A stretch of 64,000 nucleotides of DNA. Origin: Candidatus Parcubacteria bacterium. GTDB lineage: Bacteria; Patescibacteriota; Patescibacteriia; CAIXNZ01. Location: NCBI GenBank assembly GCA_026395685.1, contig JAPLYG010000016.1, forward strand, positions 1,035 to 65,034, given 5' to 3'. Positions 22,033-52,975 of the stretch are shown piece after piece. The notes beneath the pieces were generated by a model. That model was not told where the DNA came from. It worked only from the letters and a program-made list of their open reading frames with translations, and did no database searches. Made by a program: the position numbers and the translations under genes. How positions within the stretch are numbered: the stretch's first letter is position 1; the number at the start of each line of letters is the position of its first letter.

Positions 22033-22196
22033 CTAAAAAAGATTGCCAGTTTTGGCAATCTTTTCTTGGTGACCCGGCCTGCCTTCGCTTCCTCCTACGC
22101 CAAGACTTATGCGGACAAGAAAGCTTCGGCAGACAGGCTGGGGCTCGAACCCCCGCCTTCATCCCGCGTTGCGGAATTTCGGCGGGCAGGCAGGAC
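22033..22196 (-). repeat. Duplicate of tRNA-Lys 3' part plus terminator, interrupted by palindromic insertions
   Basis: Matches 22225..22290 once inserts 22078-22137 and 22152-22190 are removed. Confidence 0.85.
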
Positions 22197-22259
22197 TATT
22201 CTTATTTTGATTGAAGCAGAGGGTCTAAAAAAAGATTGCCAGTTTTGGCAATCTTTTCT

Positions 22260-22335
22260 TGGTGACCCGGCTGGGGCTCGAACCCAGGACCCTCTGCTTA
22301 AAAGGCAGATGCTCTACCGACTGAGCTACCGAGTC
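22260..22335 (-). tRNA. tRNA-Lys(TTT)
   Basis: GACTCGG/CCGGGTC, TCTGC-CTTTTAA-GCAGA, encoded CCA. Confidence 0.95.
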
Positions 22336-22505
22336 ATATGTTTAGTTTATAATTCAAAGTTTAAAATGCAAAATTGCAATTTATAATTATAAATTTTGGT
22401 ATTATATTTAAATAAATTTTCCAAAATTTTAAACTATAAATTGTCCCTCAAAGCGGGATGCCGCTTCGCGGCATAACTTTAAACTTTGCACTTTTAACTA
22501 ACTTG

Positions 22506-22579
22506 TTGCGGGGGTCGGATTTGAACCGACGACCTCCGGGTTATGGGCCCGGCGAGCTGCCAGACTGCTCTACCCCGCG
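22506..22579 (-). tRNA. Initiator tRNA-fMet(CAT)
   Basis: C1:A72 mismatch, GGG/CCC anticodon stem, loop CCCATAA. Confidence 0.93.
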
Positions 22580-22688
22580 ATGATTAAATAAAAAATAACC
22601 ACTGCTGGTTAACACAATTATAGCAAAAACCACGTAAATCTTAAAGTTTTTATTATTATAATCCCTTTTTCAAAATAAATCAAGTCCG

Positions 22689-23324
22689 CTAACTGCTTTT
22701 TAGCTCAAATTCCAAAAGATCTTTTTTTGTATTCAAAGGCTGCCAAAAACCTTCATGCTTGTATAACTTAAGCTTTAGCTTGGGAAAGACATCATATTCC
22801 AGGCTTCCTTTAGTTGCTAAGAGATTAATTAAGTCGTCTTTATTAAATAAATACCAGCCACAGCTGACCCAATCCTTCAAAACCGGCTTTTCAATGAACT
22901 TGGCATAGCCATTTTCCTCTGTAACCAAACCAAACGGCAATTGCGGATGAGCCACGCAGATCGCGTTTGGTCCTAATGTTTCCAGTTTTTCTAAATTAAT
23001 ATCAGTAATATCGTCACAATTTAAACAAAGAACAAGATCTGAACTTGCCAGGTCAATTGCCTGCCTTAAAGCGCCAGCCGTGCCTAATGGTTCAGTCTCA
23101 ATGGCAAATTCTATAGGATAGTCGGGATAATTAACCTTAACATAATCAATAATCTCCTCAGCTTTATAGCCTAAAGAAAGAATAATCTTAGCTAACTTTT
23201 TGGTTGCGAATAAATAATCAAGCTGATGCCCCAAAATCGCTTTATCTTTGACTTTGACCAGTGGCTTAGGTAAAACATCTTCCATGCGATTGCCTTTGCC
23301 TCCGGCTAAAATAATTGCTTCCAT
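22689..23324 (-). CDS. Sugar-phosphate nucleotidyltransferase family protein
   Basis: ILAGGKGNRM, PKPL, EPLGTAGA, FIEKP. Confidence 0.85.
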   Translation of the reverse strand: MEAIILAGGKGNRMEDVLPKPLVKVKDKAILGHQLDYLFATKKLAKIILSLGYKAEEIIDYVKVNYPDYPIEFAIETEPLGTAGALRQAIDLASSDLVLCLNCDDITDINLEKLETLGPNAICVAHPQLPFGLVTEENGYAKFIEKPVLKDWVSCGWYLFNKDDLINLLATKGSLEYDVFPKLKLKLYKHEGFWQPLNTKKDLLEFELKSS

Positions 23325-23327
23325 AAT

Positions 23328-24647
23328 TTAGATTAATTTATAGACTTTAGGAATCGGTTTTATAAAATCCTGCGCCCAAGCATAGGTATAAGCGCCCTGA
23401 TTAGGTATGATAATCAAATCATTTTCTGTCATTTTTTGAGCATAGCAATAGTGACCCCAGAAATCTTCAGGCATACATAAATTGCCGTACATCGCCACTT
23501 CTATTTCTTTTAAGGCTGGATGAGTCAAATTAATTACCGGGAAATAGTATGTCGTATAATATTCCCAGCCGACCATATTATTGCCGGCGTTTAAAATTAC
23601 ATTGCCTGAACTTTTAACATCTGCTACCCGCATTACCAGATGCATCGATTTAGCGCTTATTATTCTGCCTGGTTCAAAAAAATAGCTAGACTTAACTATC
23701 GGCTTTAAATGCAAATTAATCGCCTGAAAAATACTCTCTGCATATTGCGACGAGGTTGGAGTTTTGAAAATAAAATACTTATCAAAAAAGTCAAGCCGCT
23801 TATCAAAATATTCAGCCGCCAGCTTTATTATCTCTCCTTGCGGCTCTGCCCAGGGATAATATCCGTCTAAAGCTGTGGGGTAAAATCCGCCGCCCAAATC
23901 AATAAATTTAATTTGCGCTAAGTCAGATTTACTGAAATGAATTTTTAAATATTTCCCCAAAATCCTGATTATTTCCTGATACGGTTGTACTTCCAAATTC
24001 AAACTCATATGGCATTGGATGCCCTGCAATTCAATTTGAGGATATTTTTTTGCCGCTTGCCAGAATCTGGCTAAATCATCAAGAGCAATGCCAAATTTTG
24101 ACCAACTGCCATGCAGTGGGGTATAAATCCTAATACCGGCTCTTATTTTCTCTCCCCTGCCAAGGAGCGCGGCAATTTTTTCTAATTCGCGGAAACTGTC
24201 AATTTGAATAATAACTCTAGCTCGGTTTTTTATGGCTAATTTTAATTCTGACTCGCTTTTACCCGGCCCGCTAAAAATTATTTTCTTAGCCTTGCAGTCC
24301 AAAGCCATTTCTAATTCTCGTCCGCTCGAGACATCAAGGCCCATGCCTTGGCGCACCGCGATTTTCAAAATTTCAGGATAATGATTTGATTTAACCGCAT
24401 AATAAGGCTGCTGATCAAACTTATACTTGCCAAAAGACGATTGAAAGTCTTTAATGCTCGCTATCAGCGATTTAACATCAAACAGATAAAATGGCTCTGA
24501 AGTTTTAGCTGCAATGGCTTTAATCTTTTTCTTTAATTTTAGAGTTTGCCTTACAATTGCTAAAAGACTGCCCCTTTCAGCGGTTACTTTTTGTTTTAGT
24601 AATTTCCAAATTAATTTTTCTTGCGCTGACTGATTCTTTAGCAGCAT
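23328..24647 (-). CDS. PLP-dependent decarboxylase (diaminopimelate/ornithine decarboxylase fold III)
   Basis: YAVKSN, DVSS.RE, SKFG, IDLGGG, FEPGR, GNLC..ED, GAY. Confidence 0.88.
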   Translation of the reverse strand: MLLKNQSAQEKLIWKLLKQKVTAERGSLLAIVRQTLKLKKKIKAIAAKTSEPFYLFDVKSLIASIKDFQSSFGKYKFDQQPYYAVKSNHYPEILKIAVRQGMGLDVSSGRELEMALDCKAKKIIFSGPGKSESELKLAIKNRARVIIQIDSFRELEKIAALLGRGEKIRAGIRIYTPLHGSWSKFGIALDDLARFWQAAKKYPQIELQGIQCHMSLNLEVQPYQEIIRILGKYLKIHFSKSDLAQIKFIDLGGGFYPTALDGYYPWAEPQGEIIKLAAEYFDKRLDFFDKYFIFKTPTSSQYAESIFQAINLHLKPIVKSSYFFEPGRIISAKSMHLVMRVADVKSSGNVILNAGNNMVGWEYYTTYYFPVINLTHPALKEIEVAMYGNLCMPEDFWGHYCYAQKMTENDLIIIPNQGAYTYAWAQDFIKPIPKVYKLI

Positions 24648-24674
24648 AGATTACCCGTTATAACTCCAATAAAT

Positions 24675-27098
24675 CTATTTGGTATTGGCCATTAGATGAA
24701 AATAAGGCGGACGATTTTTATAGCGTTTAATTGCCAAATACATTATTTCTTCAATAAACTGCCCATAATCTTGCCCGGTTAATTCTGCACAATTGGGCAC
24801 GCAATCACCCATATTGATTGAAGGGTTGGGATTTAATTCCAAAACATAAGGGTTGTCATCTTTGTCTACGCGAATTTCTACCCGGCCATAATCATGACAG
24901 TCTAGAATATTGTATGTATCCAAAGCCATTTCGCCCAATAATGTCTCTAACTTTTTACTGATATTGCGTACCGGACGCTGAACAACAATCCCCATCTTTT
25001 CTGCAGAAATATCCGGGGAAAATTTAATATCATGGGTGTAAATGTGCCATTGTCCCTGAGTCATGTCTTTAAAAATTGAGCGGGATAAGGGTAAAACCTT
25101 CAAATCATTTTCTTCACTTCCCAAAATTGAAACATCATATTCATCGCCTTCTATATATTCTTCAATCAAAGCCGGCGAGCCTAAGTCGATAATTACTTTT
25201 TTCAGTTGTTTAGTTAGCTCTTCAGTATTAGTCACAACCGACTCATTAGTAATGCCGATGGAATTATCGGTATTTGAAGGCTTAACAATCAGCGGATAAC
25301 GCAAATTCTGATCAATTTCATCGTCCATTGAATAGACATAATCCCATTTGGGGGTTGGAATGCCATGAAAAGCCAATAACTTTTTAACTCTAATTTTATC
25401 AATACATAAACTTAATGTTGACGGATTCGAACCAGTATAAGGTATTTGCAATATATCCAGCAAGGCGGCGGCATGCGGTTCCAGCAGACTGGAATCATTA
25501 ATCCTTTCACAGACATTAAATACCAAATCCACATCGCTTTCACTTAATTCCTTAAAAGCTTTCTGAATATTATTAAAATCAAAAAAGGTAACTTTATATC
25601 CCCGATCCTTTAAAGTTTTTTCTATATTGCGTCCGACTGACATCAAATCAGCATTGACCAAATTTTCCCCTTCTTCAAAAATATTACAGGCTATGCCTAC
25701 GTGCAATTTCTTTTGTTCAGACTTAGACATCCTTCTGATTTTTTCAATTCTGGCCGCCCGAACAAATAAATCAGGTTTAATAGCTGCTAAAGAAAGACTA
25801 TTTTTTCTGGAAGTTTTACCAAAAGAAGATTCTGGGGCAAACTTTGCCACTTCAAATTTTACATATTTCATCGCCTCTCTCAGATTATCCTGAGCGTCAA
25901 GCAAGCTGTAGCCTGAAGCTGTAATCCAACCCAAATTATCATAGCCTTCAGGAGGAGCAAAAATCGGATCACCTATCTCCTTATAAAAATGCATTTCCCC
26001 GATTGACGGCCATTTTTCAATTTCATAATCAATATTAGCGGAAATCAACACCCCGGAATAATCGGGACGAAAATCCTGACCAATAATATATTTTAAAGGA
26101 TTGTCCGGTTTTTTTATTTTAATGAAGTAACCCAAAGCAACTTTAACCGCATACTCAATCAAATCTACGCCCCAACAGCCTTTAATATAGGAGTAAATAT
26201 AATCACCGCCCATACGCAGATTAATTTCAATTGGCACCGGGCCATGAGGGGTGGATTTTGCCTCCCAATGCACAATGCCATTTTGCAAGCCCAGTTTTTC
26301 CAATGTTTCTTCAGCCTGCTCAAATAATTCCTGCTGTTGCAAAGCTGGCAAACTTGAAGGGATTGATTGCCCAACTTCTACAAAAAATGGCTCCTGCGTC
26401 TGAAAATTATCAGAAATAGACCAAAATTTTACTTTGCCGTTCTGGATAATAATATCAATATCGACTTCATCGCCGTCAATATATTCTTCCACGAAAATAT
26501 CCAGGCCGTCAGCCAAAGCGCTTTCAGTCGTAGTCGAAATATTTTTTTTAATATAATTGTAGGTATTTGCCAAATCATCCTTGCCATTTACCTTGATAAC
26601 AAAAGCGCTGGAAGCGCCATAAGCCGGCTTAATTACTACAGGAAATTTAAAATCATCAGGCAAATTTTGAATTTCAGCCACTGATTTCAGTAAAACATGC
26701 TTTGGCGTAGCAATACCGTTTTGTTCGCAAAAATCCCTGAATAAATATTTATTCCTGACTTTTTTGGCAATATTATAAGGGATGCCTACCCAATTAAATT
26801 TATCAGCAATTTTGGCAGTCAATAAAACATCATCCTCCCAAAAAGTTACCACGCCGCTAATCTTAACTTCCGGATTACTGGCGATAAATTCCTTAATTGC
26901 GTTGATGCATTCAGTCTGATTGGTATTATCCGCCAAAATCCAATGATCAATATATGGCGCTGCCCAATTTTTTTCTTTATTGAGACAAACGACTTTCAAG
27001 CCAAGCCTTTTTAATTTTTGCAGAATAAAACGCTTTTTTATTGACCCGGTATTAACGACCAGAATTGTTTTGTCCTCAAAATTATTTCCGTTTCTCAT
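24675..27098 (-). CDS. Double ATP-grasp ligase: L-amino-acid-ligase-like domain fused to a Ddl-like domain
   Basis: N-half PVVIKP..GASS, EEYIDG.E, EINLRMGG; C-half PYTGS, LIVKP..DNSIGI, YGRVEIR, LELNPNP. Confidence 0.88.
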   Translation of the reverse strand: MRNGNNFEDKTILVVNTGSIKKRFILQKLKRLGLKVVCLNKEKNWAAPYIDHWILADNTNQTECINAIKEFIASNPEVKISGVVTFWEDDVLLTAKIADKFNWVGIPYNIAKKVRNKYLFRDFCEQNGIATPKHVLLKSVAEIQNLPDDFKFPVVIKPAYGASSAFVIKVNGKDDLANTYNYIKKNISTTTESALADGLDIFVEEYIDGDEVDIDIIIQNGKVKFWSISDNFQTQEPFFVEVGQSIPSSLPALQQQELFEQAEETLEKLGLQNGIVHWEAKSTPHGPVPIEINLRMGGDYIYSYIKGCWGVDLIEYAVKVALGYFIKIKKPDNPLKYIIGQDFRPDYSGVLISANIDYEIEKWPSIGEMHFYKEIGDPIFAPPEGYDNLGWITASGYSLLDAQDNLREAMKYVKFEVAKFAPESSFGKTSRKNSLSLAAIKPDLFVRAARIEKIRRMSKSEQKKLHVGIACNIFEEGENLVNADLMSVGRNIEKTLKDRGYKVTFFDFNNIQKAFKELSESDVDLVFNVCERINDSSLLEPHAAALLDILQIPYTGSNPSTLSLCIDKIRVKKLLAFHGIPTPKWDYVYSMDDEIDQNLRYPLIVKPSNTDNSIGITNESVVTNTEELTKQLKKVIIDLGSPALIEEYIEGDEYDVSILGSEENDLKVLPLSRSIFKDMTQGQWHIYTHDIKFSPDISAEKMGIVVQRPVRNISKKLETLLGEMALDTYNILDCHDYGRVEIRVDKDDNPYVLELNPNPSINMGDCVPNCAELTGQDYGQFIEEIMYLAIKRYKNRPPYFHLMANTK

Positions 27099-28369
27099 AT
27101 GAGTGTTTTTAATTCCTCCTGATAAATATTTAGTAACTTAGTTTGTAAATGTTTGGGCGCAGTACGCATGGGATAAACTTTAAAAAATTTATGATGCAGC
27201 ATTTTTTCCTGCTTAATGGTTTTATCCAGATACTTTTTCTTAAATAGCTCCATCAAGTCGCCATGGTGCCCTAAGCGATAAGCCATTAAAAAGGCCAAAC
27301 GTTGTTCGTCTTTAACAGCCGAAGGCATTTCATAAGCGCGTGTAATTTTCTTGGCGAAAAGCGGATATAAATCCCTATATTTAATATTAAAAAAGTCTTT
27401 GTTAAATCCGATTTTTTTGGGGTCACCGCCGACAGCAACTGAATACAGGTAAGCTTTGGCGCACATCGGGCAATGATAGCACCATCTATCCCTTGACGCC
27501 GTATCCAAGGAACAGGACATTAAATATTTTAAAAGCTTGGGATATCGATGGTATAATATTTTCATTTCCGCCAAATTATAAATCCCTTCCACCAGACTAA
27601 CAGCCTGAAAATTTCCTGAACTAAACTTATCAAAATATTTATTCATGGGACTCAAATAAACCGAAGACTGGTCAAATGACGGATAAGATTTAACACCCTG
27701 CTCCATCCAATAATCGTCAAAATTCTTTTCATTGCCTAGAATTAAATATTTTGCCTGGTAATGATAAGAAAAAGGCAACAACTCTAAAGCAAAAATCAAC
27801 ATACCGTTAGCGCTATCCCAGCCTTTTATTTTAATTGGCAAAGCCTTATTGAGATAAATTGCGTCCAAATTATCTTCAAAATATTCTATTTGCTTATGTT
27901 GTTCCCGGCAAAATTGGCTGATTATTCTTTTCTTAAATTTGTGTTCTAAGCTCTGCTCATCCTCCTTTTCAATAACGTATATCAGCCGGCAAGCTAAGCC
28001 TATTTCTTCGGCCAAACCATAAGAAAGCAAGCTGTCCTTGCCAAATGACAAAGCTAAAATCGCCTGAGACTCAACATTCGCCTGAGACGGGAGTTTTGTT
28101 TTTTCTTTTGGAATATGTAAAAAATCTTCTTGGCGATTTTTAATATATAATCCCAGCTGTTTAGTTTTAATTTTATTTAAATAGGCAACTCTGCCTAAGT
28201 CACCAAACAAACCATAATCAACTATTTTTCTGATGACCGGGTTGTTAAATCCAAATTGTATATTAATTTTACCGGAAGCAGCTATCGGCGCTGCACTCGC
28301 ATAAATAAAATTTTCAATTAAAAAATTTTTGGCTTTAAAATCTTTCCAGACACTGCGAGGATAAACCAT
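27095..28369 (-). CDS. PP-loop adenylating enzyme, MurL-like epimerase
   Basis: SFGKDS, GNE, SC...RWCYHCPMC resemble MurL GGKDS, SNE, SCN..WCGxCPKC; frame open to 28453. Confidence 0.65.
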   Translation of the reverse strand: MVYPRSVWKDFKAKNFLIENFIYASAAPIAASGKINIQFGFNNPVIRKIVDYGLFGDLGRVAYLNKIKTKQLGLYIKNRQEDFLHIPKEKTKLPSQANVESQAILALSFGKDSLLSYGLAEEIGLACRLIYVIEKEDEQSLEHKFKKRIISQFCREQHKQIEYFEDNLDAIYLNKALPIKIKGWDSANGMLIFALELLPFSYHYQAKYLILGNEKNFDDYWMEQGVKSYPSFDQSSVYLSPMNKYFDKFSSGNFQAVSLVEGIYNLAEMKILYHRYPKLLKYLMSCSLDTASRDRWCYHCPMCAKAYLYSVAVGGDPKKIGFNKDFFNIKYRDLYPLFAKKITRAYEMPSAVKDEQRLAFLMAYRLGHHGDLMELFKKKYLDKTIKQEKMLHHKFFKVYPMRTAPKHLQTKLLNIYQEELKTLI

Positions 28370-28474
28370 CGGATAAGAATCCTTGCCGTTAATCAGGATA
28401 TTAAAGCCTGAAGGATTAATTGAATATGAAATTTTTACCTGGGAATTTTTGATATTATTAAATTAATTCGCGGC

Positions 28475-28888
28475 TTATTGATACTTATAATCATAGGTTG
28501 AATATGCGACTGTCAATTCCTCGCCTTTTTTTATATTTCTGATGGTTACGAATTTTTCTCCGCCGTCAATTGTTTTCAAATTTGGCGTAGTAGAATTATT
28601 CACAAAAAAAGAAATATCCATGCCATTGAATCCGGTTTCCGGAATATAAACGGAACGATCTTCTTCAATCACGCAAAAATCGTCAACCAATTTTAAGATT
28701 TCTTCATCCAAATCCTTGAGCTCATCCATTTGAAATTTAATCCACTCCAGGCTTTCATTGCCAAAAGGATCAGTCCCTTCAGGAATATCGCGGATGGCAA
28801 AAACGCCCACGCCTTCAACCGCAGACGGCCTCAGCCGGCAATATGTATTTTTTATTTTATTTAAAAGCGTTTCTTTATCAAGAGCCAT
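28475..28888 (-). CDS. SET-domain methyltransferase
   Basis: GVGVFAIRDI, FVNNS..PN (NHS variant), IKKGEELT..Y. Confidence 0.88.
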   Translation of the reverse strand: MALDKETLLNKIKNTYCRLRPSAVEGVGVFAIRDIPEGTDPFGNESLEWIKFQMDELKDLDEEILKLVDDFCVIEEDRSVYIPETGFNGMDISFFVNNSTTPNLKTIDGGEKFVTIRNIKKGEELTVAYSTYDYKYQ

Positions 28889-28928
28889 GACATTAAAATA
28901 AATTATTAATTCGAGTTTCTAATAAAGT

Positions 28929-29831: not shown

Positions 29832-29965
29832 TTAAAAAAATTATTATTAAAAAATTTTAATCTTATTTTATATTTTAAGTATATGACTAGTGATTTTGAT
29901 TGTCAATGATTTTTTGAATCTTTTTGTAAAATTAAAATTTATTTTTAAAAATGCTATTGCTAATA

Positions 29966-29992
29966 AAAAAGAGTCTCAACCGATGAGACTCT
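29966..29992 (-). terminator. Intrinsic terminator
   Basis: AGAGTCTCA..TGAGACTCT plus T-run on minus strand. Confidence 0.75.
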
Positions 29993-30001
29993 TAGTTGCC
30001 C

Positions 30002-33995: not shown

Positions 33996-33998
33996 AAT

Positions 33999-35727: not shown

Positions 35728-35755
35728 GCCCTCTGTAGCTTTAGCGTAAGAGGGC
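35728..35755. repeat. Palindromic element (30-bp family), intergenic copy
   Basis: GCCCTCT-GTA-GC-TTTA-GC-GTA-AGAGGGC. Confidence 0.75.
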
Positions 35756-39029: not shown

Positions 39030-39374
39030 AATTTAATGTACCACGCCCTCCATTTATCAATATTCCTACTTTAAGTATATGACCCCAACAAATTATTGTC
39101 AAATATTTCTCTACAACATATAGCTATTACTCATTATTTTATTTAATTTTAGCATTATTTTATATATTATTTTGTCAACTATTTATTCGAATGTAAAAAG
39201 TTATCCACAACCAAAAAAGAGGGCAAATACCCTCTTTAAACTTCAACCTTCATACTTCAGACTTTGGCCTTAAAAATATTACTCCTAAATTATATCAGCC
39301 AAAGGCTGATCCGCCTCTGGCGGAAACTTCCAATTGTAATTTTACATTTTACATTTTGCACTTTAAACTTTTAA

Positions 39375-40954: not shown

Positions 40955-42214
40955 TCAATTTTTTCGTTTTAAGGGCGACATTTCACGCAGCCTTTTTACA
41001 ATAGCCGGCAAAACTTCGATTACCCTGTCAATTTCCTTGGCAGTAGTTCCCTTGCCCAGGGTAAAGCGCAAAGATGCGTGGCAATCTTCAGCCGGAATAT
41101 CCATGGCGCGTAAAACATGAGAGGGTTCCAAGGAGCCGGAAGCGCAGGCTGAACCAGTAGAAACCGCAATACCTTCCAAATCAAGCATCAAAAGCATACT
41201 CTCCCCTTCAGCACCTAAAAAGCTGATATTCGCATTGCCTGGTACGCGTTTTTCCAAATTACCGTTAATTTGAGTATCGGGAATTTTCTTCGTTAAACCC
41301 GCAATCAATTTATCCCTTAATTTTCCAATTTTATCGTTTATTTCTGTTTGCTCTTTATTTACCAATTCTATTGCCACGCCCAAACCGACAATTCCAGCGA
41401 CATTATAAGTCCCCGGCCTGATATTATATTCCTGATGTCCACCAAAAATAATGGACTTAATCGGCGTGCCTTCTTTGATGTACAAAGCTCCAATTCCTTT
41501 GGGTCCGTAAATTTTATGTCCGGAAATTGTAATAAAATCAGTTTTTAAATAATCCGCCTTCATCGGGCAATAATTAACCGCCTGCACTGCATCAGTGTGA
41601 AAATAAATCTTATCATACAAATCCTTCGGACTTCGTACTTCGGACTTCGGCCTTCGTTTTAAGTTCGCCTTTTCAACAATTTCCCCGATTTTACGGATGG
41701 GCTGAATCGTTCCGATCTCATTATTAACATACATAATGGAAACCAAAATCGTATTGTCTTTAATTGCTTCTTTTATTTCATTTATTTTAACAACCCCATT
41801 AGAATCAACATTAACGAAAGTCACTTCAGCTAATCCTTCTTTTACCAATTCCTGACAAACCTCCAAAATTGCCGGGTGTTCAATTTTTGAAGTAATAATA
41901 TGAAATTTCTTGTCCTCCGGAGCTTTAGCGGAGGAGGATTCTTTTTTAGCGTTGCGAAATGCCATGAGCAAGCCGCGCAAGACCAGATTATTGCTTTCAG
42001 TCGCTCCGGAAGTAAAAATTACCTCCTTGAACTTGCAGCCAAAAAGATTAGCCAGCTGTTCCCTGGCCCAATCAACACCTTTAATCGCTTCTTGACCAAA
42101 GGAATGCAATGAGGACGCATTACCAAAAATATCAGTAAGATATGGCTGCATTTTTTTTAGAACTTGCGGATCAAGCGGCGTAGTCGCAGAATGATCCAAA
42201 TATATCTTTTCCAT
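40955..42214 (-). CDS. iscS: Cysteine desulfurase IscS/NifS with two repeat-derived in-frame insertions
   Basis: YLDHSATT, FTSGATESNN, HTDAVQ, SGHKIYGPKG, STGSAC. Confidence 0.95.
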   Translation of the reverse strand: MEKIYLDHSATTPLDPQVLKKMQPYLTDIFGNASSLHSFGQEAIKGVDWAREQLANLFGCKFKEVIFTSGATESNNLVLRGLLMAFRNAKKESSSAKAPEDKKFHIITSKIEHPAILEVCQELVKEGLAEVTFVNVDSNGVVKINEIKEAIKDNTILVSIMYVNNEIGTIQPIRKIGEIVEKANLKRRPKSEVRSPKDLYDKIYFHTDAVQAVNYCPMKADYLKTDFITISGHKIYGPKGIGALYIKEGTPIKSIIFGGHQEYNIRPGTYNVAGIVGLGVAIELVNKEQTEINDKIGKLRDKLIAGLTKKIPDTQINGNLEKRVPGNANISFLGAEGESMLLMLDLEGIAVSTGSACASGSLEPSHVLRAMDIPAEDCHASLRFTLGKGTTAKEIDRVIEVLPAIVKRLREMSPLKRKN

Positions 42215-42572: not shown

Positions 42573-43153
42573 TTACAGGGGACTTTAGTCCCCGTTTGAT
42601 TTATTTAATATTTATATTTTTCAACAGGCAAATTCAATTCCCAATTTAAATTTTTCACATTTCCAATAATTTCCAAGATTGATTTTTTCTCATATTTCGT
42701 TAACAAATTATTATAATTTGAATACTCATATTTATTTAGATCATAAATATCCTCAACCAATCCATGTTTCCAGGGGTTCCCCAGTATATACCCCATAACC
42801 TTATAATATGCTTCCTGATTAAAAACATTACTAATATAATAACTATCCCAAATTGGTTTTGATATATTTTCCAGTAAAAAAGAAACACCACCATTAATCT
42901 TTTGAATAATTTTTGGCACATCCTTACCAGTCTTTAAGTAAAAAAGAATATGGTAATGATTCCTTAAAATACAATAAGAGTCATAAGAAAAATCATAAAT
43001 TGATTGCATTGATAAAATTTTTCCCAAAAGAAGCTTCCTATTATCTTCATTCTCAAAACAATTCAGACCATCAATAGTTCTACTTGTTAAAAAATAATAG
43101 TTATAGTCAAGATAGAATTTCATATTGTCTTACGCAGACTAAAGTCTGCTATA
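42573..43153 (-). mobile_element. RAYT-like Y1 transposase cassette with inverted REP ends
   Basis: REPs GGGGACTTTAGTCCCC (42578-42593) and GCAGACTAAAGTCTGC (43134-43149) flank the ORF. Confidence 0.75.
42605..43123 (-). CDS. REP-associated tyrosine (Y1 HUH) transposase
   Basis: YFLT, NHYH (HUH), IW, YI.GNPWKHGLV, Y.YS; very AT-rich. Confidence 0.85.
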   Translation of the reverse strand: MKFYLDYNYYFLTSRTIDGLNCFENEDNRKLLLGKILSMQSIYDFSYDSYCILRNHYHILFYLKTGKDVPKIIQKINGGVSFLLENISKPIWDSYYISNVFNQEAYYKVMGYILGNPWKHGLVEDIYDLNKYEYSNYNNLLTKYEKKSILEIIGNVKNLNWELNLPVEKYKY

Positions 43154-44307: not shown

Positions 44308-44592
44308 ATGTCACATAAAAAAGCAGGTGGTAGTTCCGCCAATGGACGGGATTCAAATTCCCAAAGACTGGGCGTAAAACGCTACGAAGGTCAGCTTGTC
44401 ACTGCAGGAAATATTCTGGTTCGACAAAGAGGCGTGGCAATCAGACCCGGACAAAATGTAATGAAAGGCAAAGACGATACTCTCTTTACTATAATTGACG
44501 GCATTGTTAAATTTACTGAACGCAAAGTGCGCAGATTTAATAACCATCTATTAAAAGCAAAATTTGTCAGTGTTTTACCGGTAAAAAAATAA
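44308..44592 (+). CDS. rpmA: 50S ribosomal protein L27
   Basis: [28 protein letters not shown]. Confidence 0.97.
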
Positions 44593-44653
44593 TATCGTAA
44601 TATAAAAGAACGACGCAGCCAATGTGTCGTTCTTTTTATTTGTAATAATTCTT

Positions 44654-45328: not shown

Positions 45329-45370
45329 ATCTATACTTTATAATTAATCATAAAAATAAAAGCCTGTAAT

Positions 45371-46219: not shown

Positions 46220-46233
46220 AACTATAATATTTT

Positions 46234-48321
46234 TTACTGGACAGAATAAAATTCAAAATCATTTACCTTTTCCCAGTCGCGCTCATTCAAGACAGTAATT
46301 TTCTCATTGCTGATTATATATAAATAATCATTTAAATATAAAGCGCGTTTAACCCCCTGATCACTGACAGCTTTAACCAGCTTCAGTTGGTCATTTTTAT
46401 AGGAAAAGACATACCCGCCCTTGCCGCCTGGCAGGAAAAAGACCTCATACTTGGAATCCATTAAAAAGGCGTGATGATTCGTTACTGCCTCTGACCAATA
46501 TTCCTCCAGCAGATATTTTGCCAATTCTTTGGGATCAGACGGATTGGAAACATCAAAAATGGCGACTTTAACCTTATTATTTTCCTCGCCAATGCCGATA
46601 ATCTTATCTTTATTAATCGGGTGCAGATAGCCTGAATAGCCGGGGATCTTTAGTTCACCTTTTAATTCCGGCTTTTTGGGATTTGATAAATCAATCACAT
46701 AAAAAGGATCGGTCTGGCGAAAAGTAACCACATAACCTTTATCTTCAATAAATCTGGCTGAATATATCCTTTCTGTTAAGCCCAGATCCAAAACTGAACC
46801 GATAACCTTTAAATCCTTATCTAAAACATAAACATCATTGGCGCTTTCACTCGTACCGCCGCCAACCATGCCGAACCAGGATTGGCCGACTGTTGTGGCC
46901 ACGCGCAGATTGCCATTATATTCATCGAGGCTGAACTGATTCAGCGGTTTTCCCGGCACACTGCCATTGGCAGTAATTTTAAAACCATCTATCGCGATTT
47001 TAAAAATGCCTGATTGTTCCAGTTCCCGGCGATGTGCCTTGCCATAAGTTTGCATTCTATTAGTCATTTCATTTTCCAAAAGCATGCGGTCATCATCGTT
47101 AAGTGAACTGATCCAACGCTCCATAACAGTGTTTAATTCCGCCATTTTAGCCTGAGAACCCAAATCATAAGTTTGTAATTTCTGTAATTTATCAGTCACC
47201 CAGCTAGGTACTATGTCGGAATTTTCCTTGAAAAAATTAAACAAATATCTGACCATGTCCCCCGGATAATAATAAGTGACAAAAATATTGTCCTTAGACA
47301 CATAGATGATTGACTGAGAATTTGACCCGACAAAAGATACAGTTTTTTCTACTTTTCCATCAGCAGGATTTATGGCCATGACCGTAAAAGTTGCATCTGT
47401 CGGCACAATTACTTCGGGATGATAAATATCGGTACAGCTGATAGACACCCCGCTACCGTCAATTTTAAGAGGTTCATATGGACAAGGCTGGTCATATTTA
47501 ATATTATTTCTGGTAATCACATATATTTTGTCCTGATACAGCCGGCTGGTTAAAATATAGCTGTTATCACCCGCTTCTGCGGTCCATTTAACCGCTGGCT
47601 TTGCTTTGTCGGAAATATCATAGCCGTAAATTTTCCTGTTATCATCGCTAAAAACCGTTAAAATATTATTTTTTAAAAGCATTGAGCCGTTAATTTCCAA
47701 TTCTGAATCAAGCTTTAAATCAGCCGGCGGATAAGCCTTAACCAGTTTTATTCCGTTTTTAATTTCACGGGATATCGGAGGTACCGGAGCAATTTCAGTG
47801 TTTACATCTGGTGCAAACTCGATCATTGGTACTGATACCGGGATTTGCCTATAGGGCTGAAACCAGCGATCACCGGAAAAATATATTTCTTTGCCGTCAG
47901 TTTTGACAATATCAGGCTCATCAATGCCGCTAACCTGGACATTGGTCTCGGAAACTCTGTCTGCGCCAATACTGCCGGTAGACAACCCGGTGCTTTCACT
48001 AAATGAGCCCAAATCATCCAAGGCAAATTCTCCCCCACTATTTGAAGCTGGAGAAGTAAATTCACGTATTACAGTACTACTATATCCTGTCTGAGACGAG
48101 ACGCTTGCTTCTTCCAGATATTTTTTAAATTCATCATTAGAGGTAAATTTTTTAATGCCCTTTAACTGGCCGGATAAATCATTTTGACTGTTTAGATTTA
48201 AAAAACTGAAGTTCTGCTGATTGTTGTTTTTATAATTTAAAACAAAATACAGCAAAGCGCCATTTATTACTACCAAAAGCAGAATAATCACAATAAATAA
48301 AATCTTTAAATTTTTGTTCAT
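46234..48321 (-). CDS. Secreted beta-propeller domain protein
   Basis: TNVQV.G.DEPDIVKTDG, LNQFSLDE, ERIYSARF, TFRQTDP, GELKIPG.S.YLHP. Confidence 0.9.
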   Translation of the reverse strand: MNKNLKILFIVIILLLVVINGALLYFVLNYKNNNQQNFSFLNLNSQNDLSGQLKGIKKFTSNDEFKKYLEEASVSSQTGYSSTVIREFTSPASNSGGEFALDDLGSFSESTGLSTGSIGADRVSETNVQVSGIDEPDIVKTDGKEIYFSGDRWFQPYRQIPVSVPMIEFAPDVNTEIAPVPPISREIKNGIKLVKAYPPADLKLDSELEINGSMLLKNNILTVFSDDNRKIYGYDISDKAKPAVKWTAEAGDNSYILTSRLYQDKIYVITRNNIKYDQPCPYEPLKIDGSGVSISCTDIYHPEVIVPTDATFTVMAINPADGKVEKTVSFVGSNSQSIIYVSKDNIFVTYYYPGDMVRYLFNFFKENSDIVPSWVTDKLQKLQTYDLGSQAKMAELNTVMERWISSLNDDDRMLLENEMTNRMQTYGKAHRRELEQSGIFKIAIDGFKITANGSVPGKPLNQFSLDEYNGNLRVATTVGQSWFGMVGGGTSESANDVYVLDKDLKVIGSVLDLGLTERIYSARFIEDKGYVVTFRQTDPFYVIDLSNPKKPELKGELKIPGYSGYLHPINKDKIIGIGEENNKVKVAIFDVSNPSDPKELAKYLLEEYWSEAVTNHHAFLMDSKYEVFFLPGGKGGYVFSYKNDQLKLVKAVSDQGVKRALYLNDYLYIISNEKITVLNERDWEKVNDFEFYSVQ

Positions 48322-48519
48322 AGTCCTAATTATTAATTAAATATCTTATATTATTAATCCACGAGAAAGGCACCTTAAGGTAACATTAAGCTGAATATAT
48401 TATATCATTTTTCTTTAACAATAAAAAAAGGTTATACACCGCTACAAAATTGCCGCAAACAAAAAATCACGAAAGCGCTTGGACATTTCGTGATTTTTAA
48501 TTTGAATTAAAGAGTATTT

Positions 48520-49821
48520 TTATAGCTGTTCATCTTCATACCATTTTATATTGCGGGAAATATACATCACAACTGCCAATATCATAAACAGAAAAACACT
48601 TCCCATCAAAAAGGCGTAATCTTCCGACTGCAAAATAACATACATAAAAATATAGAGCAAAGCCAGAATTCCGCCGATAACCAGGGCCATATTATTTTTT
48701 TTGAAAATTGCCCTGGAGTAAAGGGAAATAAGCAAGGTGGTAGCAAGGGAGGCTATTAAATAAGCTATATTGAAATTAATATTTTCAGCCAAGGACAATA
48801 ATAAGGCGTAAAAAATTACCAGGGCCAGCCCAACCAAAAGATACTGAAACGGATGAATCCTTTTCTTATAAATAACTTCCACAAAAAAATAGGCTAAAAA
48901 AGTAAGGAAGATGACTAAAATCGCATATTTAACCGAACGTTGGGTCTTTTGATAATGATCAGCCGGTATTAGTAAATCCACGCCAAATTCCGCATTATCA
49001 ATATCATAAGCTTTATCCTGCCAAATCTGAGGAAAATTACGGTTTAAATCAAGTACTTTCCAGTTAGCCGTAAAGCCTTGGGCAGTCACTTCCCGGCTAT
49101 CAGGCAAAAATTTACCCGCGAAACTTGGACTTGGCCAATCAGACTTTATGCTGACTTGAGTCTCTTTGCCCAAGGGAGAAAAATATAAATATTCACTGCC
49201 ATTTATTTTCACTTCCAGATTAAAATCAAAAGTTTGCTCAGCGCTCTCAGCCGTCAGAATAAGCGGGGCACTGACACCTGATTCAAAAAGATCCTTTGCC
49301 TTGGCGCCAGATTCAAAAGTTAGCTCTTTACTGCCGAAATTCATGACAATAGTTTCTTTGATACCTCTCATATCGGGTATGCCTAAAGAAATATAAGCGT
49401 CATGCCACTGGATATTTTCAGACGAGATCCCTAAGTCACTGTAACTAATCCCTTTAAACTGTCCGCTGATTTTCAAATTTGATTTATAGACTGCGGCTTC
49501 AAAAATACCCCGTTTAAGTATTTCCGGCTTAATTTCGCCATCTACTTTCAAAACATCAGGTAACACATAGATAAATCCTTTGATATTAGACATCTTAGTT
49601 TTGTCAAAAGTCAAATAAGGAATTGAAATTACCGGGCCGACAATAGTTTGCGCATTGCCCCATTTTTCGCTAACCTCGCTGATAGCTTCGCTCTGGCGCT
49701 GTTTTCTTTCATAAACCAGACCATAAAGCATTAAAGTGGGAATTAATAAAACTAAAATCAAACAGCCTATTACCACCAATTTAACGCTGATTGACTTTCG
49801 AAACCATTGGCTTGCAGACAT
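48520..49821 (-). CDS. creD: Inner membrane protein CreD
   Basis: W...QT..GP, WPSPSF.G.FLP, RSVKYA, IHPFQYLLVGLAL. Confidence 0.93.
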   Translation of the reverse strand: MSASQWFRKSISVKLVVIGCLILVLLIPTLMLYGLVYERKQRQSEAISEVSEKWGNAQTIVGPVISIPYLTFDKTKMSNIKGFIYVLPDVLKVDGEIKPEILKRGIFEAAVYKSNLKISGQFKGISYSDLGISSENIQWHDAYISLGIPDMRGIKETIVMNFGSKELTFESGAKAKDLFESGVSAPLILTAESAEQTFDFNLEVKINGSEYLYFSPLGKETQVSIKSDWPSPSFAGKFLPDSREVTAQGFTANWKVLDLNRNFPQIWQDKAYDIDNAEFGVDLLIPADHYQKTQRSVKYAILVIFLTFLAYFFVEVIYKKRIHPFQYLLVGLALVIFYALLLSLAENINFNIAYLIASLATTLLISLYSRAIFKKNNMALVIGGILALLYIFMYVILQSEDYAFLMGSVFLFMILAVVMYISRNIKWYEDEQL

Positions 49822-50000
49822 ATTTTCACAATTAATAATTAGCTAAATTGAGATTCCCCCTACCAAGAGTAAGAAGACTTCTAATGTAGAATAATTCTAA
49901 AACAAAACTGAAATAAAATCAAGAACCGACCCCGCGATGCAAAGCCGGTCTTATTGATACCTATTGACAATTTTCTCAAGCTATGCTAGTATACCACTAC

Positions 50001-50210
50001 GTCTGGGCAGGCTGATGGCAGACATTGGCTGGGCCGAGTAAGGTCGCCTTGGACCGAGTGGCAAAGCAACAAAGCAAGGCTGCGGTCAAGAAAACGTCGG
50101 AATATCTTGACCTAAGCGAAAAAAGGATCCGGCTTACTCCCTAGGCTTGCCCGGCCTTTGGAGGACCAACATGACAGGGCAACCCCGGGACTGCAAACCG
50201 GGGCTTTTTA
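50001..50210 (+). ncRNA. Unidentified structured RNA with own promoter and terminator
   Basis: TTGACA(49964)-N17-TAGTAT; nested stems GGGCAGGC/GCTTGCCC, GAGTAAG/CTTACTC, GCCTTG/CAAGGC, GGTCAAGA/TCTTGACC; terminator CCCCGG..CCGGGG-CTTTTT. Confidence 0.65.
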
Positions 50211-50307
50211 TTTTCTACAAATTTAATGCGAATATACTAAAAACACCCCACAGAGCGGAGTGTTTTTTTGCAACCTCATAAAACTTAATATAACTTCATA
50301 CAACCGC

Positions 50308-51936
50308 TCAAGAGATCGCCGCCTTAATAAACTCTTTAAAAAGCGGATGCGGCTTCAACGGTCTTGACTTGAATTCAGGATGAAATTGTGTGGCCACAAA
50401 AAATTTATGATTCGGCACTTCAATGATTTCTACTAAATTATTATCAGGAGAAGTTCCGGCAATGCGCAAACCTTTTTCTTCCAGTAACTTCCTGTATTGA
50501 TTATTAAATTCATAACGATGGCGATGGCGTTCGGAAATTTCTTTTTGTCCATATGCTTTATAGCTGACAGAATCTTTATTTAAAACACAAGGATAAGCTC
50601 CCAAGCGCATAGTACCGCCCATTTTCTTGGTTTTAATTTTCTCAATTTGATCTTCCATAGTATGAACCACAGGGTAAGGCGTATTTTCATCAACTTCCGG
50701 AGTATTAGCATTTTCCAAACCAGCCACATGGCGGGCAAATTCAATTGTCGCCAATTGCATGCCATAGCATAAGCCTAAATATGGAATATTATTTTCCCGA
50801 CAATATTTAATAGCCTGAATTTTGCCTTCAATGCCTCTCATGCCAAAACCGCCCGGCACAATAATGCCGTCGTATTTTTTTAATTCAGCCAGTTTGGCAG
50901 GATCTTTTTCGTATTCCTCAGAATTTATCCAGCAAAGTACGGGCTGACGATTATTGGCCCAAGCCGCATGCTTAATTGCTTCAATTACTGAAATGTAAGA
51001 ATCTGACAAAGTAAAATTGCCTGTGGCAAAATATTTGCCGACAATGCCGATATTTACTTTTTCTTTGCTGGCCTTAATTACTTCCACCAATTTTTCCCAA
51101 TCTTTCAGATCTTTCCCCTTATCTTTTAAGCCAAACTTTTCCAGAATTCTATTGCCAAGCTCGTCTTTCTCAAAATTTAAAGGAATTTCATAAATAGTAT
51201 CGACATCCGGGGCTGAAATGGCGTTTCCTTTTGGTATATTACAAAAAGTAGCCAATTTTTCCTTGCGTACTTCATCCAAAGGAACCTCTGCCCGGCATAA
51301 AATAAAATCGGGAAAAATACCAGTGCTGTTTAAGGCACGTACGGCTGTTTGCGTTGGCTTAGTCTTCATTTCACCTATTTTTGAAGGTATGGGCAGATAG
51401 CTGACCAGAATGACAATAACATCATTGGGCGTTTCGGTTCTCATCATGCGGGCTGCTTCCAAAAACAAAATATTCTGATATTCGCCGACAGTACCGCCGA
51501 TTTCAATAATAGTAAAATCAGATTTTGCCAATTCAGAAGCTTTTTTAATACGGTTAATGACTTCCTGCGGCACATGTGGCACAACTTCCACGCATTTTCC
51601 GCCATATTCTAAATTCCTTTCCCGCTGAATCACGCTTAAATAAACACGACCGGTTGTCATATAATTTGTTGACAGAATATCCTGATCTAAAAATCTTTCA
51701 TAATTACCGATATCCTGGTCGGTTTCATCGCCGTCATCAGTTACAAAAACTTCGCCGTGTTCAGTCGGATTCATTGTTCCGGCATCAACATTGATATAGG
51801 GATCAATTTTAATAGCTGTAACTTTATAGCCTTTGCTTTGTAAAATTTTACCGATTGAAGCGCAGGAAACACCCTTGCCTACTCCGGACATCACGCCACC
51901 GGCAACAAAAATGTATTTGGGGGTCATATCTTCCAA
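50308..51936 (-). CDS. pyrG: CTP synthase
   Basis: GGVMSGVGKG, KTKPTQ, GLCYGMQ, ERHRHRYE, QFHPE. Confidence 0.97.
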   Translation of the reverse strand: MEDMTPKYIFVAGGVMSGVGKGVSCASIGKILQSKGYKVTAIKIDPYINVDAGTMNPTEHGEVFVTDDGDETDQDIGNYERFLDQDILSTNYMTTGRVYLSVIQRERNLEYGGKCVEVVPHVPQEVINRIKKASELAKSDFTIIEIGGTVGEYQNILFLEAARMMRTETPNDVIVILVSYLPIPSKIGEMKTKPTQTAVRALNSTGIFPDFILCRAEVPLDEVRKEKLATFCNIPKGNAISAPDVDTIYEIPLNFEKDELGNRILEKFGLKDKGKDLKDWEKLVEVIKASKEKVNIGIVGKYFATGNFTLSDSYISVIEAIKHAAWANNRQPVLCWINSEEYEKDPAKLAELKKYDGIIVPGGFGMRGIEGKIQAIKYCRENNIPYLGLCYGMQLATIEFARHVAGLENANTPEVDENTPYPVVHTMEDQIEKIKTKKMGGTMRLGAYPCVLNKDSVSYKAYGQKEISERHRHRYEFNNQYRKLLEEKGLRIAGTSPDNNLVEIIEVPNHKFFVATQFHPEFKSRPLKPHPLFKEFIKAAIS

Positions 51937-52024
51937 AATTAAAAATTAAAAATTTAAAATTAAAAATTGCCGAAAGTAATTTTTAAATTTAAGTTTTCAA
52001 TCAAGCAACAAAAAAGAGAGGCTA

Positions 52025-52471
52025 TTATTCCTCTCTGGCGACAGTAAGTCCAATCTTGGCAGTTACTCCTGTGCCAAAATCAACTAAGACATCATAATAT
52101 CCTAAACTTTTAATAGGTTGCTCTAATTTAATATATTTAGTGTCAATAACAAATTTGCGCTCTTTCAATTCCTCGGCAATTTTTACGGCGTTTATGGAGC
52201 CGAATAAAGTTTTCTTTTCGTCTGCTTTTGCCTTGATGGTAATTTTTATATTATTTATTTTTCTGGCAATTTCTTTATTTTTTTTAGCTCTATTTTCCAC
52301 TTTTTTGATCTGCTGTCTCTTTTTAGTTTCCATTTCGTTTATTGTCGCATCCGAAGCGATTTTAACCAAACCATTAGGCAATAAATAATTGCGGGCAAAG
52401 CCTTCACTCACCTCTTTTACTTCCCCGGTTTTACCCAAATTTGGGACAGTTTTTATTAAAATCACTTTCAT
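52025..52471 (-). CDS. rplI: 50S ribosomal protein L9
   Basis: MKVIL...V.NLG..GEV..V..GFARNYLLP, LFGSI. Confidence 0.96.
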   Translation of the reverse strand: MKVILIKTVPNLGKTGEVKEVSEGFARNYLLPNGLVKIASDATINEMETKKRQQIKKVENRAKKNKEIARKINNIKITIKAKADEKKTLFGSINAVKIAEELKERKFVIDTKYIKLEQPIKSLGYYDVLVDFGTGVTAKIGLTVAREE

Positions 52472-52576
52472 ATTATTATAAATAAAACATGTTTTGAACT
52501 GTGAGCCTTGAGCATAAAGCTCTAAGCCCCAAGCCCGAAGCTCTAAGCTTACGAAATTATTCTACACTAAAAAATA

Positions 52577-52975
52577 TTAATTGCCAAATAATCCTGCCCA
52601 AAAGCCCTTGCTCTCCGAAGCTTTAGCAGAGGAGGGTTTTTCAGATTCAGAATCGTTTTCATCATCTGACGCTTTATCTGCAGCTAGAACTATATTATAG
52701 ATTCGCTGCGCTTCTTGCTTTACCAAATCTGAATCATAATCTCCGCTATGAGCGGTATAACCTTCGTATGAAACTTTTTTCTGGTCCAAATGCAAACTCA
52801 AAATTAACGGATCTTCGGAATTAATATACATATGAAAACGCGGATAAAAATCAGAACGCAATCTTTTTACGTAACTGGTTTCTCTGGTGCGCGAATCTCT
52901 AATCTGGCCATAACCGCAGCGTCTGACCAAAAAATCAGCATTTTTATTAAATTTTTGGTTAAATGGAATTTTCAT
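52577..52975 (-). CDS. Conserved hypothetical carrying an in-frame palindromic insertion (PSSAKASESK)
   Basis: YPRFH, LHLDQKK.SY...AHSG motifs. Confidence 0.7.
   Translation of the reverse strand: MKIPFNQKFNKNADFLVRRCGYGQIRDSRTRETSYVKRLRSDFYPRFHMYINSEDPLILSLHLDQKKVSYEGYTAHSGDYDSDLVKQEAQRIYNIVLAADKASDDENDSESEKPSSAKASESKGFWAGLFGN

Follow-up and report, generated by a model that had tools for sequence, protein, structure and literature searches.

The closest described counterparts of the element reported here are repetitive extragenic palindromes (REPs) and the REP-associated tyrosine transposases (RAYTs). REPs of the GTAG-3 class consist of a stem, a non-complementary trinucleotide and a GC-loop-GC end (PMC3733652), and E. 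coli TnpA-REP requires a 5′ tetranucleotide as well as a stem mismatch (PMC3333891). Insertion sequences (IS) of the IS200/IS605 kind insert without creating target repeats and make use of the lagging-strand template (PMC3333891), and single-strand transposition has been coupled to replication (PMC3333891, PMC5027513). REPs are described as species-specific (PMC6006769), and intragenic REPs, Rickettsia palindromic elements (RPEs) and repeated insertion at one gene site are all in print (PMC3733652). Here we describe a 30-nucleotide (nt) bulged hairpin found in 64,000 nt from a Candidatus Parcubacteria bacterium (hereafter the window: contig JAPLYG010000016.1 of assembly GCA_026395685.1, which is C14:1035-65034 of genome G000). 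The hairpin is probably a dispersed REP-type mini-element, cleanly inserted without duplication and moved as single-stranded DNA (ssDNA) by a RAYT, a Y1 HUH transposase.

Like the GTAG-3 and GTAG-14 REPs (PMC3733652; PMC3333891), the 30-mer is a GC-rich imperfect palindrome in the 20-40 nt range with a tetranucleotide at the foot of its stem. It shares with them a non-complementary trinucleotide between the stem and a GC-closed loop, as well as self-complementary loop variants (PMC3733652). It is likewise present in many dispersed, mostly intergenic copies, some of them in genes, and its genome has several RAYT genes. It departs from REP/RAYT systems in carrying CYTG in place of GTAG or GTGG, with ~60% of copies lacking this tag; in occurring as singletons, with no RAYT gene bracketed by this hairpin type; and in its fixed 30-nt unit, exact junctions and affinity for tRNA ends. 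Its core is also identical across many phyla, unlike that of species-specific REPs (PMC6006769). Because the GTAG feature is missing and the hairpins beside RAYT genes (REPtron flanks) are one-sided or bulge-less, the 30-mer is not a proven member of a RAYT-REP system. Its match in build is to the text description of GTAG-3 and GTAG-14, and it may be identical with one of the 24 GTAG families of PMC3733652. The 30-mer appears to be a new variant of the REP kind, a general kind that is already known. Literature searches returned general REP/RAYT papers and nothing on the 30-mer hairpin or on REPs in bacteria of the Candidate Phyla Radiation (CPR).

Other short elements are alike in part. RPE-1 measures ~100-150 bp. 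By contrast, a single 30-mer unit adds exactly 10 residues, and its likeness to RPEs is one of behaviour, not membership. As with intragenic REPs and RPEs, in-frame palindromes lie in functional genes (tRNA synthetases, QueA, DNA methylases, helicases), and orthologues are hit repeatedly near one site, as in Xanthomonas recB there and IscS here (PMC3733652). Six peptide words from the 30-mer family were absent from those supplementary files of PMC3733652 that were examined, where intragenic REPs encode other peptides. With IS200/IS605 elements the 30-mer shares the lack of target duplication, hairpin-defined ends, a cleavage-type tetranucleotide 3′ of the hairpin at one end and an orientation bias relative to the replication strands (PMC3333891, PMC5027513). 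It differs from them in having one hairpin rather than two, no internal transposase gene and no conserved target tetranucleotide. It differs from miniature inverted-repeat transposable elements in that its clean junctions show no duplication and the whole unit is one hairpin, without the terminal inverted repeats of a parent IS. The cyanobacterial small dispersed repeats of Elhai et al. 2008 are reportedly mobile repeats of ~21-27 nt that nest within their own copies; their sequence and host range are unrelated to those of the 30-mer.

The hairpin unit and its copies in the window

In the G orientation (the strand that reads tag, pyrimidine-rich stem arm and then GNA), the unit consists of a CYTG tag where one is present, a 6-bp stem (YCNNCC), GNA, GC TTTA GC, GNA and the complementary stem arm. 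The opposite strand reads stem, TNC, GC TAAA GC, TNC, stem and CARG. The canonical unit is a 26-base bulged GC-rich hairpin plus a 4-base tag (CAGG or CAAG), 30 nt in all. A consensus of 18 constraints, graded by number of deviations, found 10, 17, 24 and 27 copies at 0, 1, 2 and 3 deviations in the G000 genome (1.24 Mb, 38% GC, 23 contigs). Four independent scrambled consensuses gave 0, 0, 0 and 0 copies at up to 2 deviations and 0, 6, 1 and 3 at up to 3. A fifth control, which is two substitutions off the real consensus and not independent, gave 12 and 22, respectively. Within the window the core pattern occurs twice against 0.04 expected, and 0 of 100 shuffles reached two. The shuffles, the scrambled consensuses and the existence of non-coding copies rule out chance or a coding-level motif. 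In a set of 626 perfect GC-rich hairpins whose inner core is closed, GNA/GNA heads the non-Watson-Crick 3x3 loop classes, with 30.

With variant cores added, G000 holds ~44 loci (27 canonical and ~17 variant). The variants include GCGAAGC cores, inner hairpins of 6-7 bp and two-tier forms at C4:61561, C6:49451 and C23:61362, and sister subfamilies of 34 and 40 nt are intergenic only. The 10 perfect copies have 7 stem types, all paired. An earlier note on this DNA had described pairing stems, a conserved GNA/GNA bulge and a conserved CAAG/CAGG tail; stems and bulge stand, and the tail is found on only ~40% of copies. The CYTG tag is carried by 11 of 27 canonical copies in G000 and by 16 of 39 in the same-genus genome G001. 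TTTA is a second recurrent tag, and GWAG was seen only inside the bulge. Only two neighbouring pairs in G000 lie within 300 nt of each other, both direct and none inverted. The flanks of the canonical copies hold no T-runs after the hairpin. One copy, at C15:29893, has 3 deviations and is doubtful.

All five loci that had been listed in the window are present. The iscS gene (40955-42214, minus strand) carries a canonical 30-mer at 41909-41938, which reads on the plus strand as CTTG followed by TCCTCC GGA GCTTTAGC GGA GGAGGA, a perfect hairpin; in the frame of the gene it encodes SSSAKAPE(DK). A second coding copy, at 52607-52636 on the plus strand (CTTG at 52607-52610, hairpin at 52611-52636), has a single G-T pair in the stem and a single AGA loop. 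It sits in the acidic C-terminal linker of a minus-strand open reading frame (ORF), 52577-52975, and reads PSSAKASES(K) on the gene strand. This ORF encodes 132 aa without a Pfam match and has a homologue in 13 of 13 family genomes. An intergenic canonical hairpin at 35729-35754 (plus strand) is perfectly paired and lacks the CYTG tag. Two variant-core members, both on the plus strand, come in addition to the loci listed earlier. The first, at 10115-10149 (stem, GTA, 7-bp inner hairpin, GAA, stem, with CCTTCG flanks), lies within a repeat abutting tRNA-Gln, and a second copy of the same type is at 11192-11226.

The remaining window copies lie in a tRNA-Lys pseudo-copy, all on the minus strand. 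This duplicate of the terminator and the last 28 nt of tRNA-Lys (22030-22232) hosts three inserts, and the intact tRNA-Lys(UUU) at 22260-22335, also on the minus strand, displays the empty sites. A 60-nt nested pair at 22078-22137 in the tRNA-Lys 3′ fragment comprises an outer 30-mer (22078-22089 plus 22120-22137), which is canonical after excision of 22090-22119, and a degenerate inner 30-mer (22090-22119) inserted between GCT and AAAGC of the outer loop. A 39-nt variant at 22152-22190 is placed at the 5′ foot of the T-arm. It consists of CCTG, a 6-bp stem, GAA, a 7-bp inner hairpin, GAA and the stem, and its DNA fold has an energy of -11.5 kcal/mol (z -2.55). The two tRNA-Lys copies were compared by an explicit excision test: removal of 22078-22137 and 22152-22190 leaves 63 consecutive bases identical to the intact copy, which confirms the nesting of one 30-mer in another and the 39-nt variant, both read earlier from the sequence. 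The inner copy has decayed at ~6 of 30 positions, and the loop variant CAAG, previously offered as an alternative to TAAA, is just this decayed copy.

Partial tRNA duplicates with hairpin inserts adjoin intact genes in two cases. Besides the 3′ 28 nt of tRNA-Lys in the window, ~33 nt from the 5′ end of tRNA-Leu are duplicated at C6:41290-41420 of G000; G001 has no duplicate there.

Filled and empty sites between relatives

The same-genus genomes G001 and G002 display empty alleles at single-base resolution. In TatD, G000 has exactly 30 additional nt between GAAGTC and CGAAGG relative to both, adding 10 residues, and no base is shared at either junction. QueA has exactly 30 additional nt between ACTTCGG and CCTTCGG relative to G002, again adding 10 residues; QueA and ValS were compared via G002, G004, G005 and G009. 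The intergenic copy C19:44416 is an exact 30-nt gain relative to G001, within the loop of an AT-rich hairpin. A nested pair at C10:4067 adds 62 nt to a site that is empty in G001. Its inner 30-mer sits between TTT and A of the outer loop, the same position as that of the inner copy in the window. Two members of the intergenic subfamily, C14:96028 and C17:15420, are exact 40-nt gains relative to G001, made up of a 6-nt CCTWCG tag and 34 nt, and a 34-nt member at C6:41360 lies within a 101-nt insertion relative to the same genome. Shared copies are also seen: the PheT insert is common to G000 and G001 and absent from G002, G004, G005 and G009 (2 of 6 genomes filled), and a decayed copy at C10:9763 occupies the same site in G000 and G001. 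A flank BLAST search against G001 gave no partner for any of the 8 loci on C8, nor for 10 other loci.

Target-site duplication is absent at TatD, QueA, C19:44416 and the nested junctions, and is strictly excluded only at TatD, QueA and the nested junctions. The earlier proposal of insertion without duplication holds at these sites; at the tRNA-Lys site itself the junction can be placed only to within 3 nt (GGC). The unit is also 30 nt long in non-coding settings (two copies in the tRNA-Lys leftover, C19:44416 and the nested copy at C10:4067), and so the length is intrinsic rather than just a by-product of selection in genes. A comparison of coding with non-coding copies had been proposed, and the outcome is that 30 nt is a property of the canonical subfamily in both settings, and that not all subfamilies are multiples of three. 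The picture of an ultra-short, structure-defined mobile element of 3n length is supported by the clean 30-nt inserts of TatD, QueA and C19:44416, and its 3n part does not extend to the 34- and 40-nt subfamilies.

The gain of 10 residues is exact in TatD and QueA, as had been predicted for coding insertions, and is not what was found in IscS or ValS. The IscS copy is a net gain of 18 nt relative to G002 (24 nt replace 6), and its apparent tag overlaps an ancestral GAC AAA; the ValS copy is a net gain of 6 nt relative to G002. The IscS loop is filled in 3 of 14 family genomes, and G009 and G007 have hairpins of their own there, which differ in stem and loop. An IscS tree of 18 taxa, computed with the insert region masked, places the filled genomes in three separate clades (supports 0.93-1.0), and three gains are therefore indicated. 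IscS thus seems to have gained look-alike inserts three times independently in the same probable surface loop. As a separate observation on this locus, ~1.1 kb lies between iscS and nfu in G001 (L011, ~2706-3829), against ~120 nt or less in G000 and G002.

Nine solid loci, and at most 12, of the 44 lie in ORFs of at least 120 aa. Such ORFs make up 84% of the genome, and with 32-35 of 44 loci outside them the depletion is strong (binomial P < 1e-15). Eight of the nine host ORFs are assigned by Pfam: TatD, ValS, QueA, an N6 DNA methyltransferase, IscS, PheT, a UvrD-type helicase with a PD-(D/E)XK nuclease domain, and SMC, where the insertion is doubtful. The ninth is the 132-aa ORF of the window. 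The TNC strand is the sense strand in seven hosts, giving S-x-x-A-K-A-S-x-D/E, and the G strand in two (QueA and SMC), giving P-A-E-A-L-A-E-A-G. In all nine copies the reading frame takes the first base of the stem as the start of a codon. There is no sign of stop-codon avoidance in the consensus, as 2 to 3 of its 6 frames, read from the sequence, hold a stop.

The earlier note had allowed that the 10-residue segments might prove ancestral, or that further copies and empty sites might be lacking. Neither was found in the orthologue alignments or among the ~44 loci, and an ancestral protein segment is ruled out by alignment for IscS, TatD, QueA and PheT. The copy in SMC (C3:23323) probably did not arise by insertion: it has 2 deviations, and the site is equally long in G001.

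Targets, phylogenetic spread and strand bias

Several insertions are in or beside other folded sequences. The hairpin's own loop was the target twice in G000 and once in a Spechtbacterales metagenome-assembled genome (MAG; L142), and the loop of an unrelated hairpin was the target at C19:44416. Arrays of CTTCGG heptads were targets in TatD, QueA, C14:122656 and C23:56068, and ~5 canonical copies, judged from their flanks, lie in such arrays. CCGAAGG, the complement of the heptad, is a stable GNA mini-hairpin. Both T-arm feet of the tRNA-Lys fragment were hit, and the C6:41360 copy is in the D-loop of the duplicated 5′ tRNA-Leu fragment. The copy at C10:385-410 forms the variable P3 hairpin of an S-adenosylmethionine (SAM) riboswitch, which still passes the Rfam gathering score. 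This riboswitch is the first of two in tandem (L324, 330-452), and G001 has an unrelated hairpin there. No fixed target tetranucleotide is evident at five clean junctions, where the left flanks end in GTC, GCT, GCT, CGG and ACC.

Two further observations concern these targets. The empty sites of TatD (L094) and QueA (L313) in G002 are short CCGAAGK/MCTTCGG heptad arrays, both coding. A placement of the C10:385 copy in RNase P RNA was considered and ruled out, since Rfam places it in the SAM riboswitch.

The core reaches far beyond this genus. Its 14 nt occur at least twice in 18 of 61 genomes (G000 included), and a reversed control never occurs more than once per genome. Among same-family genomes, 12 of 13 hold at least two, with up to 33 in G012. 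A scan for the exact 20-nt core in one genome per species found at least 122 loci. The matches listed come from Alpha- and Gammaproteobacteria, Acidobacteriota, Bacteroidota, Verrucomicrobiota, Planctomycetota, Nitrospirota, Omnitrophota, Bdellovibrionota and many Patescibacteria. Among these listed matches, the three unspecified outer stem pairs are all complementary in 71 of 123 foreign copies (chance ~2%), and CYTG is present on 30 of 123. Copies clearly outnumber the reversed control in a Cyclobacteriaceae chromosome (16 versus 0) and a Doudnabacteria MAG (12 versus 0); the counts are only 8 versus 4 in Bradyrhizobium, 4 versus 2 in Maricaulis and 6 versus 3 in Terrimonas. A tRNA gene is present in 16 of the 120 foreign loci listed and lies within ~6 nt of the hairpin in 11, and one further copy abuts a transfer-messenger RNA (tmRNA) end, so that tRNA or tmRNA ends are abutted in 12 of 120. 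One of these loci has its copy inside RNase P RNA. Orientation relative to neighbouring tRNA genes is not fixed. A bolder proposal can be framed, and we regard it as possible though doubtful: that the unit ranks with the smallest autonomous-looking pieces of mobile DNA, a 30-nt codon-compatible single-hairpin single-strand transposon, its core conserved from Bradyrhizobium to Saccharibacteria, which homes to hairpin loops and feet and to tRNA and tmRNA ends and, in gene-dense genomes, goes on seeding 10-residue loops in essential proteins such as IscS, TatD, QueA, ValS and PheT. If true, the identity of the core across phyla would imply that the GNA-bulged C-TTTA-G hairpin is read either by a single RAYT clade that travels horizontally or by a host factor that is universal.

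A longer right flank, GGCGGC AAGCCGGGCGA.GA., is conserved in Bradyrhizobium and alphaproteobacterial MAG copies (L126, L139, L140, L157 and L160), which hints that the repeat is larger in those genomes or that its coding context is conserved.

The two strands of the hairpin are unevenly used. The TNC strand lies on the locally G-rich strand in 33 of 42 orientable G000 loci (P = 2.7e-4). Among canonical copies it does so in 23 of 27, and in 19 of 21 when the absolute skew is at least 0.08; in G001 the counts are 27 of 39, and 20 of 25 in the strong-skew subset. Genes tend to be co-oriented with the leading strand, and the co-orientation of 716 of 935 genes with the G-rich strand supports our reading of that strand as leading-strand sequence, that is, as lagging-strand template. 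At the 20 loci where gene strand and skew conflict, 13 copies follow skew and 7 follow the gene. This bias is consistent with replication-coupled single-strand transposition.

Two other hairpin families are present in the window. At 39295-39324 there is a different 30-nt unit made of two tandem 15-nt hairpins (TCAGCC AAA GGCTGA and TCCGCC TCT GGCGGA), downstream of a 349-aa ORF, a putative mraY. This family has five loci in G000 and also forms exact 30-nt inserts (SARGGSA.GG) in TatD of G001, G003 and G010. The third family, ..ACAC-TTTA-GTGT.., is found at window 2688-2741 (C14:3722-3775) and at six other G000 loci, in closely spaced inverted doublets that are REPIN-like (REP doublets forming hairpins). 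One of these doublets lies directly 3′ of a RAYT gene (C3:19178-19759).

Candidate enzymes and competing explanations

G000 has eight Y1_Tnp matches, of which seven score best against the NCBIfam model REP_Tyr_transpos and one is an IS200/IS605 transposase. Three of the seven exceed the model's 80-bit cut-off (124.5, 88.2 and 86.5 bits) and four fall below it (66.6, 60.6, 57.2 and 33.1 bits). One RAYT-like Y1 HUH transposase gene is in the window, at 42605-43123 on the minus strand, encoding 172 aa with HYH and Y..GNPWKHGL motifs in its translation. It is flanked by two hairpins, GGGGAC-TTTA-GTCCCC 3′ of the gene (42578-42593) and GCAGAC-TAAA-GTCTGC 5′ of it (43134-43149), the latter with its loop in inverted orientation. 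Gene and hairpins together (42578-43149) form an insertion of ~540 nt in the iscU-nfu spacer. Only G000 has a RAYT gene between iscU and nfu, with 0 of 12 in the relatives that hold both genes. A gene-less look-alike pair of hairpins occurs at C23:147498-147545, with an identical GGGGAC hairpin and a partner of different stem within the same flanks. Given the insertion in G000 alone and this gene-less pair, the window RAYT unit was therefore recently mobile. The hairpins that flank RAYT genes in G000 and G012 have the C-TTTA-G tip of the 30-mer and lack its GNA bulge. A tagged member of the 30-mer family lies ~100 nt downstream of another RAYT gene (C23:144153-144758), on one side only.

A related arrangement is seen in G012, where a RAYT gene (L076, C6, 2400-3260) has two upstream and three downstream copies of a ~60-nt repeat. 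The repeat ends in an AATGC-TTTA-GCATT hairpin, and a two-tier GNA-bulged family member follows.

If RAYT-driven transposition is the correct account, the 30-mer would be cut and pasted as ssDNA at the replication fork by one of the seven RAYT-type transposases. The active strand would be stem-TNC-GC-TAAA-GC-TNC-stem-CAGG, mostly on the G-rich strand (the lagging-strand template). Cleavage directly after CAGG would define the right end, as at the right ends of IS200/IS605 elements, and the left cut would be made at the stem foot. The protein would contact the conserved GNA/GNA bulge and the C-TTTA-G tip, so that the stem need only pair. Insertions into genes would survive only in loops and linkers, where 10 small polar residues (S-x-x-A-K-A-S-x-D) are tolerated. 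We infer the mobilising enzyme in this scheme, and the link to HUH chemistry is circumstantial.

Several findings weigh against this account. The tag is CYTG rather than GTAG and is absent from ~60% of copies, and the copies are singletons, unlike the inverted doublets typical of REPINs and bacterial interspersed mosaic elements (BIMEs). None of the G000 RAYT genes has the exact hairpin type on both sides, and the flanks of the window RAYT gene are plain 6-bp hairpins without the GNA bulge. A simple paste does not predict the apparent replacements in IscS (+18) and ValS (+6). The five clean junctions show no conserved target tetranucleotide. Neither RAYT profile finds a gene in G019 (100% complete, five core matches) or G059 (two core matches), and PF01797 matches occur in 25 of the 43 genomes that hold one core match or none. 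The skew rule fails for both tRNA-Lys copies in the window. The strand bias might also reflect gene orientation, which 7 of the 20 informative loci follow and which is not fully separable from skew, or counter-selection of the G-strand hairpin, the more stable of the two, when it lies on the lagging-strand template. The proposed correlation of copy number with RAYT genes is weak; it is confounded by kinship among the 61 genomes and has G019 and G059 as exceptions. G053 had appeared to be a third exception until the RAYT-specific profile found two genes. The association with GIY-YIG genes is weak as well.

An alternative is a mechanism with no dedicated transposase, in which host replication or repair copies the hairpin between loci at stalled forks, whether by template switching or by microhomology-primed gap repair, and intrastrand pairing keeps the arms complementary. 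Replacement of 6-20 nt of ancestral sequence by the IscS and ValS copies, together with the overlap of the IscS tag with GAC AAA, is in its favour. So are the hairpin or CCGAAGG mini-hairpin targets (TatD, QueA, C14:122656 and C23:56068), the perfect pairing of stems that differ in sequence, and the copies that G019 and G059 hold without a detectable RAYT. This mechanism nonetheless seems unlikely. The recurrence of an exact 30-nt unit, with one asymmetric 4-nt tag, at sites unrelated to each other speaks for a site-specific cut and not for slippage, microhomology is absent at TatD and at the nested junctions, and the same tag and core recur across phyla.

Small GIY-YIG nuclease cassettes at the ends of tRNA genes could instead move the 30-mer, or leave it behind as a recognition or repair scar. 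G000 has eight GIY-YIG matches, seven of them in ORFs of at most 178 aa. One small GIY-YIG gene is bracketed by repeats that contain the variant-core members at window 10115 and 11192, another member (C14:116682) is ~550 nt from a second such gene, and foreign copies abut tRNA ends. Yet only two of the seven small GIY-YIG genes have a family member within ~1 kb, and no nuclease gene lies near the coding, riboswitch or nested copies. In GIY-YIG homing, double-strand-break repair copies the cassette as a whole, which leaves free 30-nt units and a replication-strand bias unexplained, and we consider this origin improbable. That the hairpin is an immobile host motif selected for protein binding, RNA processing or termination is less probable still, very much so: its identical core across phyla, its mostly intergenic location, its place in RNase P RNA in one genome and in the SAM riboswitch P3 of G000, and its contact with tRNA and tmRNA ends would suit such a role, but it is present or absent among same-genus genomes (TatD, QueA, IscS and C19:44416), occurs in dead tRNA fragments, within its own loop and in unrelated protein loops, has no set orientation to nearby tRNA genes and lacks a 3′ T-run.

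REPs are usually seen as species-specific, extragenic and of uncertain mobility. As a probable RAYT-mobilised REP-type element, the 30-mer offers three features seldom available for REPs. First, congeneric genomes hold its filled and empty alleles, resolved to the base, which define a unit of 26 + 4 nt that inserts without duplication. Second, its cross-phylum core opens the recognition code (GNA bulge plus C-TTTA-G tip) to tests with any of many RAYTs. For annotation, copies of the unit account for unusual indels of CPR proteins, the splitting of tRNA fragments, and riboswitch or RNase P hairpins of atypical form. The third feature is a natural series of 10-residue insertions in conserved enzymes, with an indicated three independent ones in a single IscS loop, that bears on the origin of protein loops in reduced genomes.

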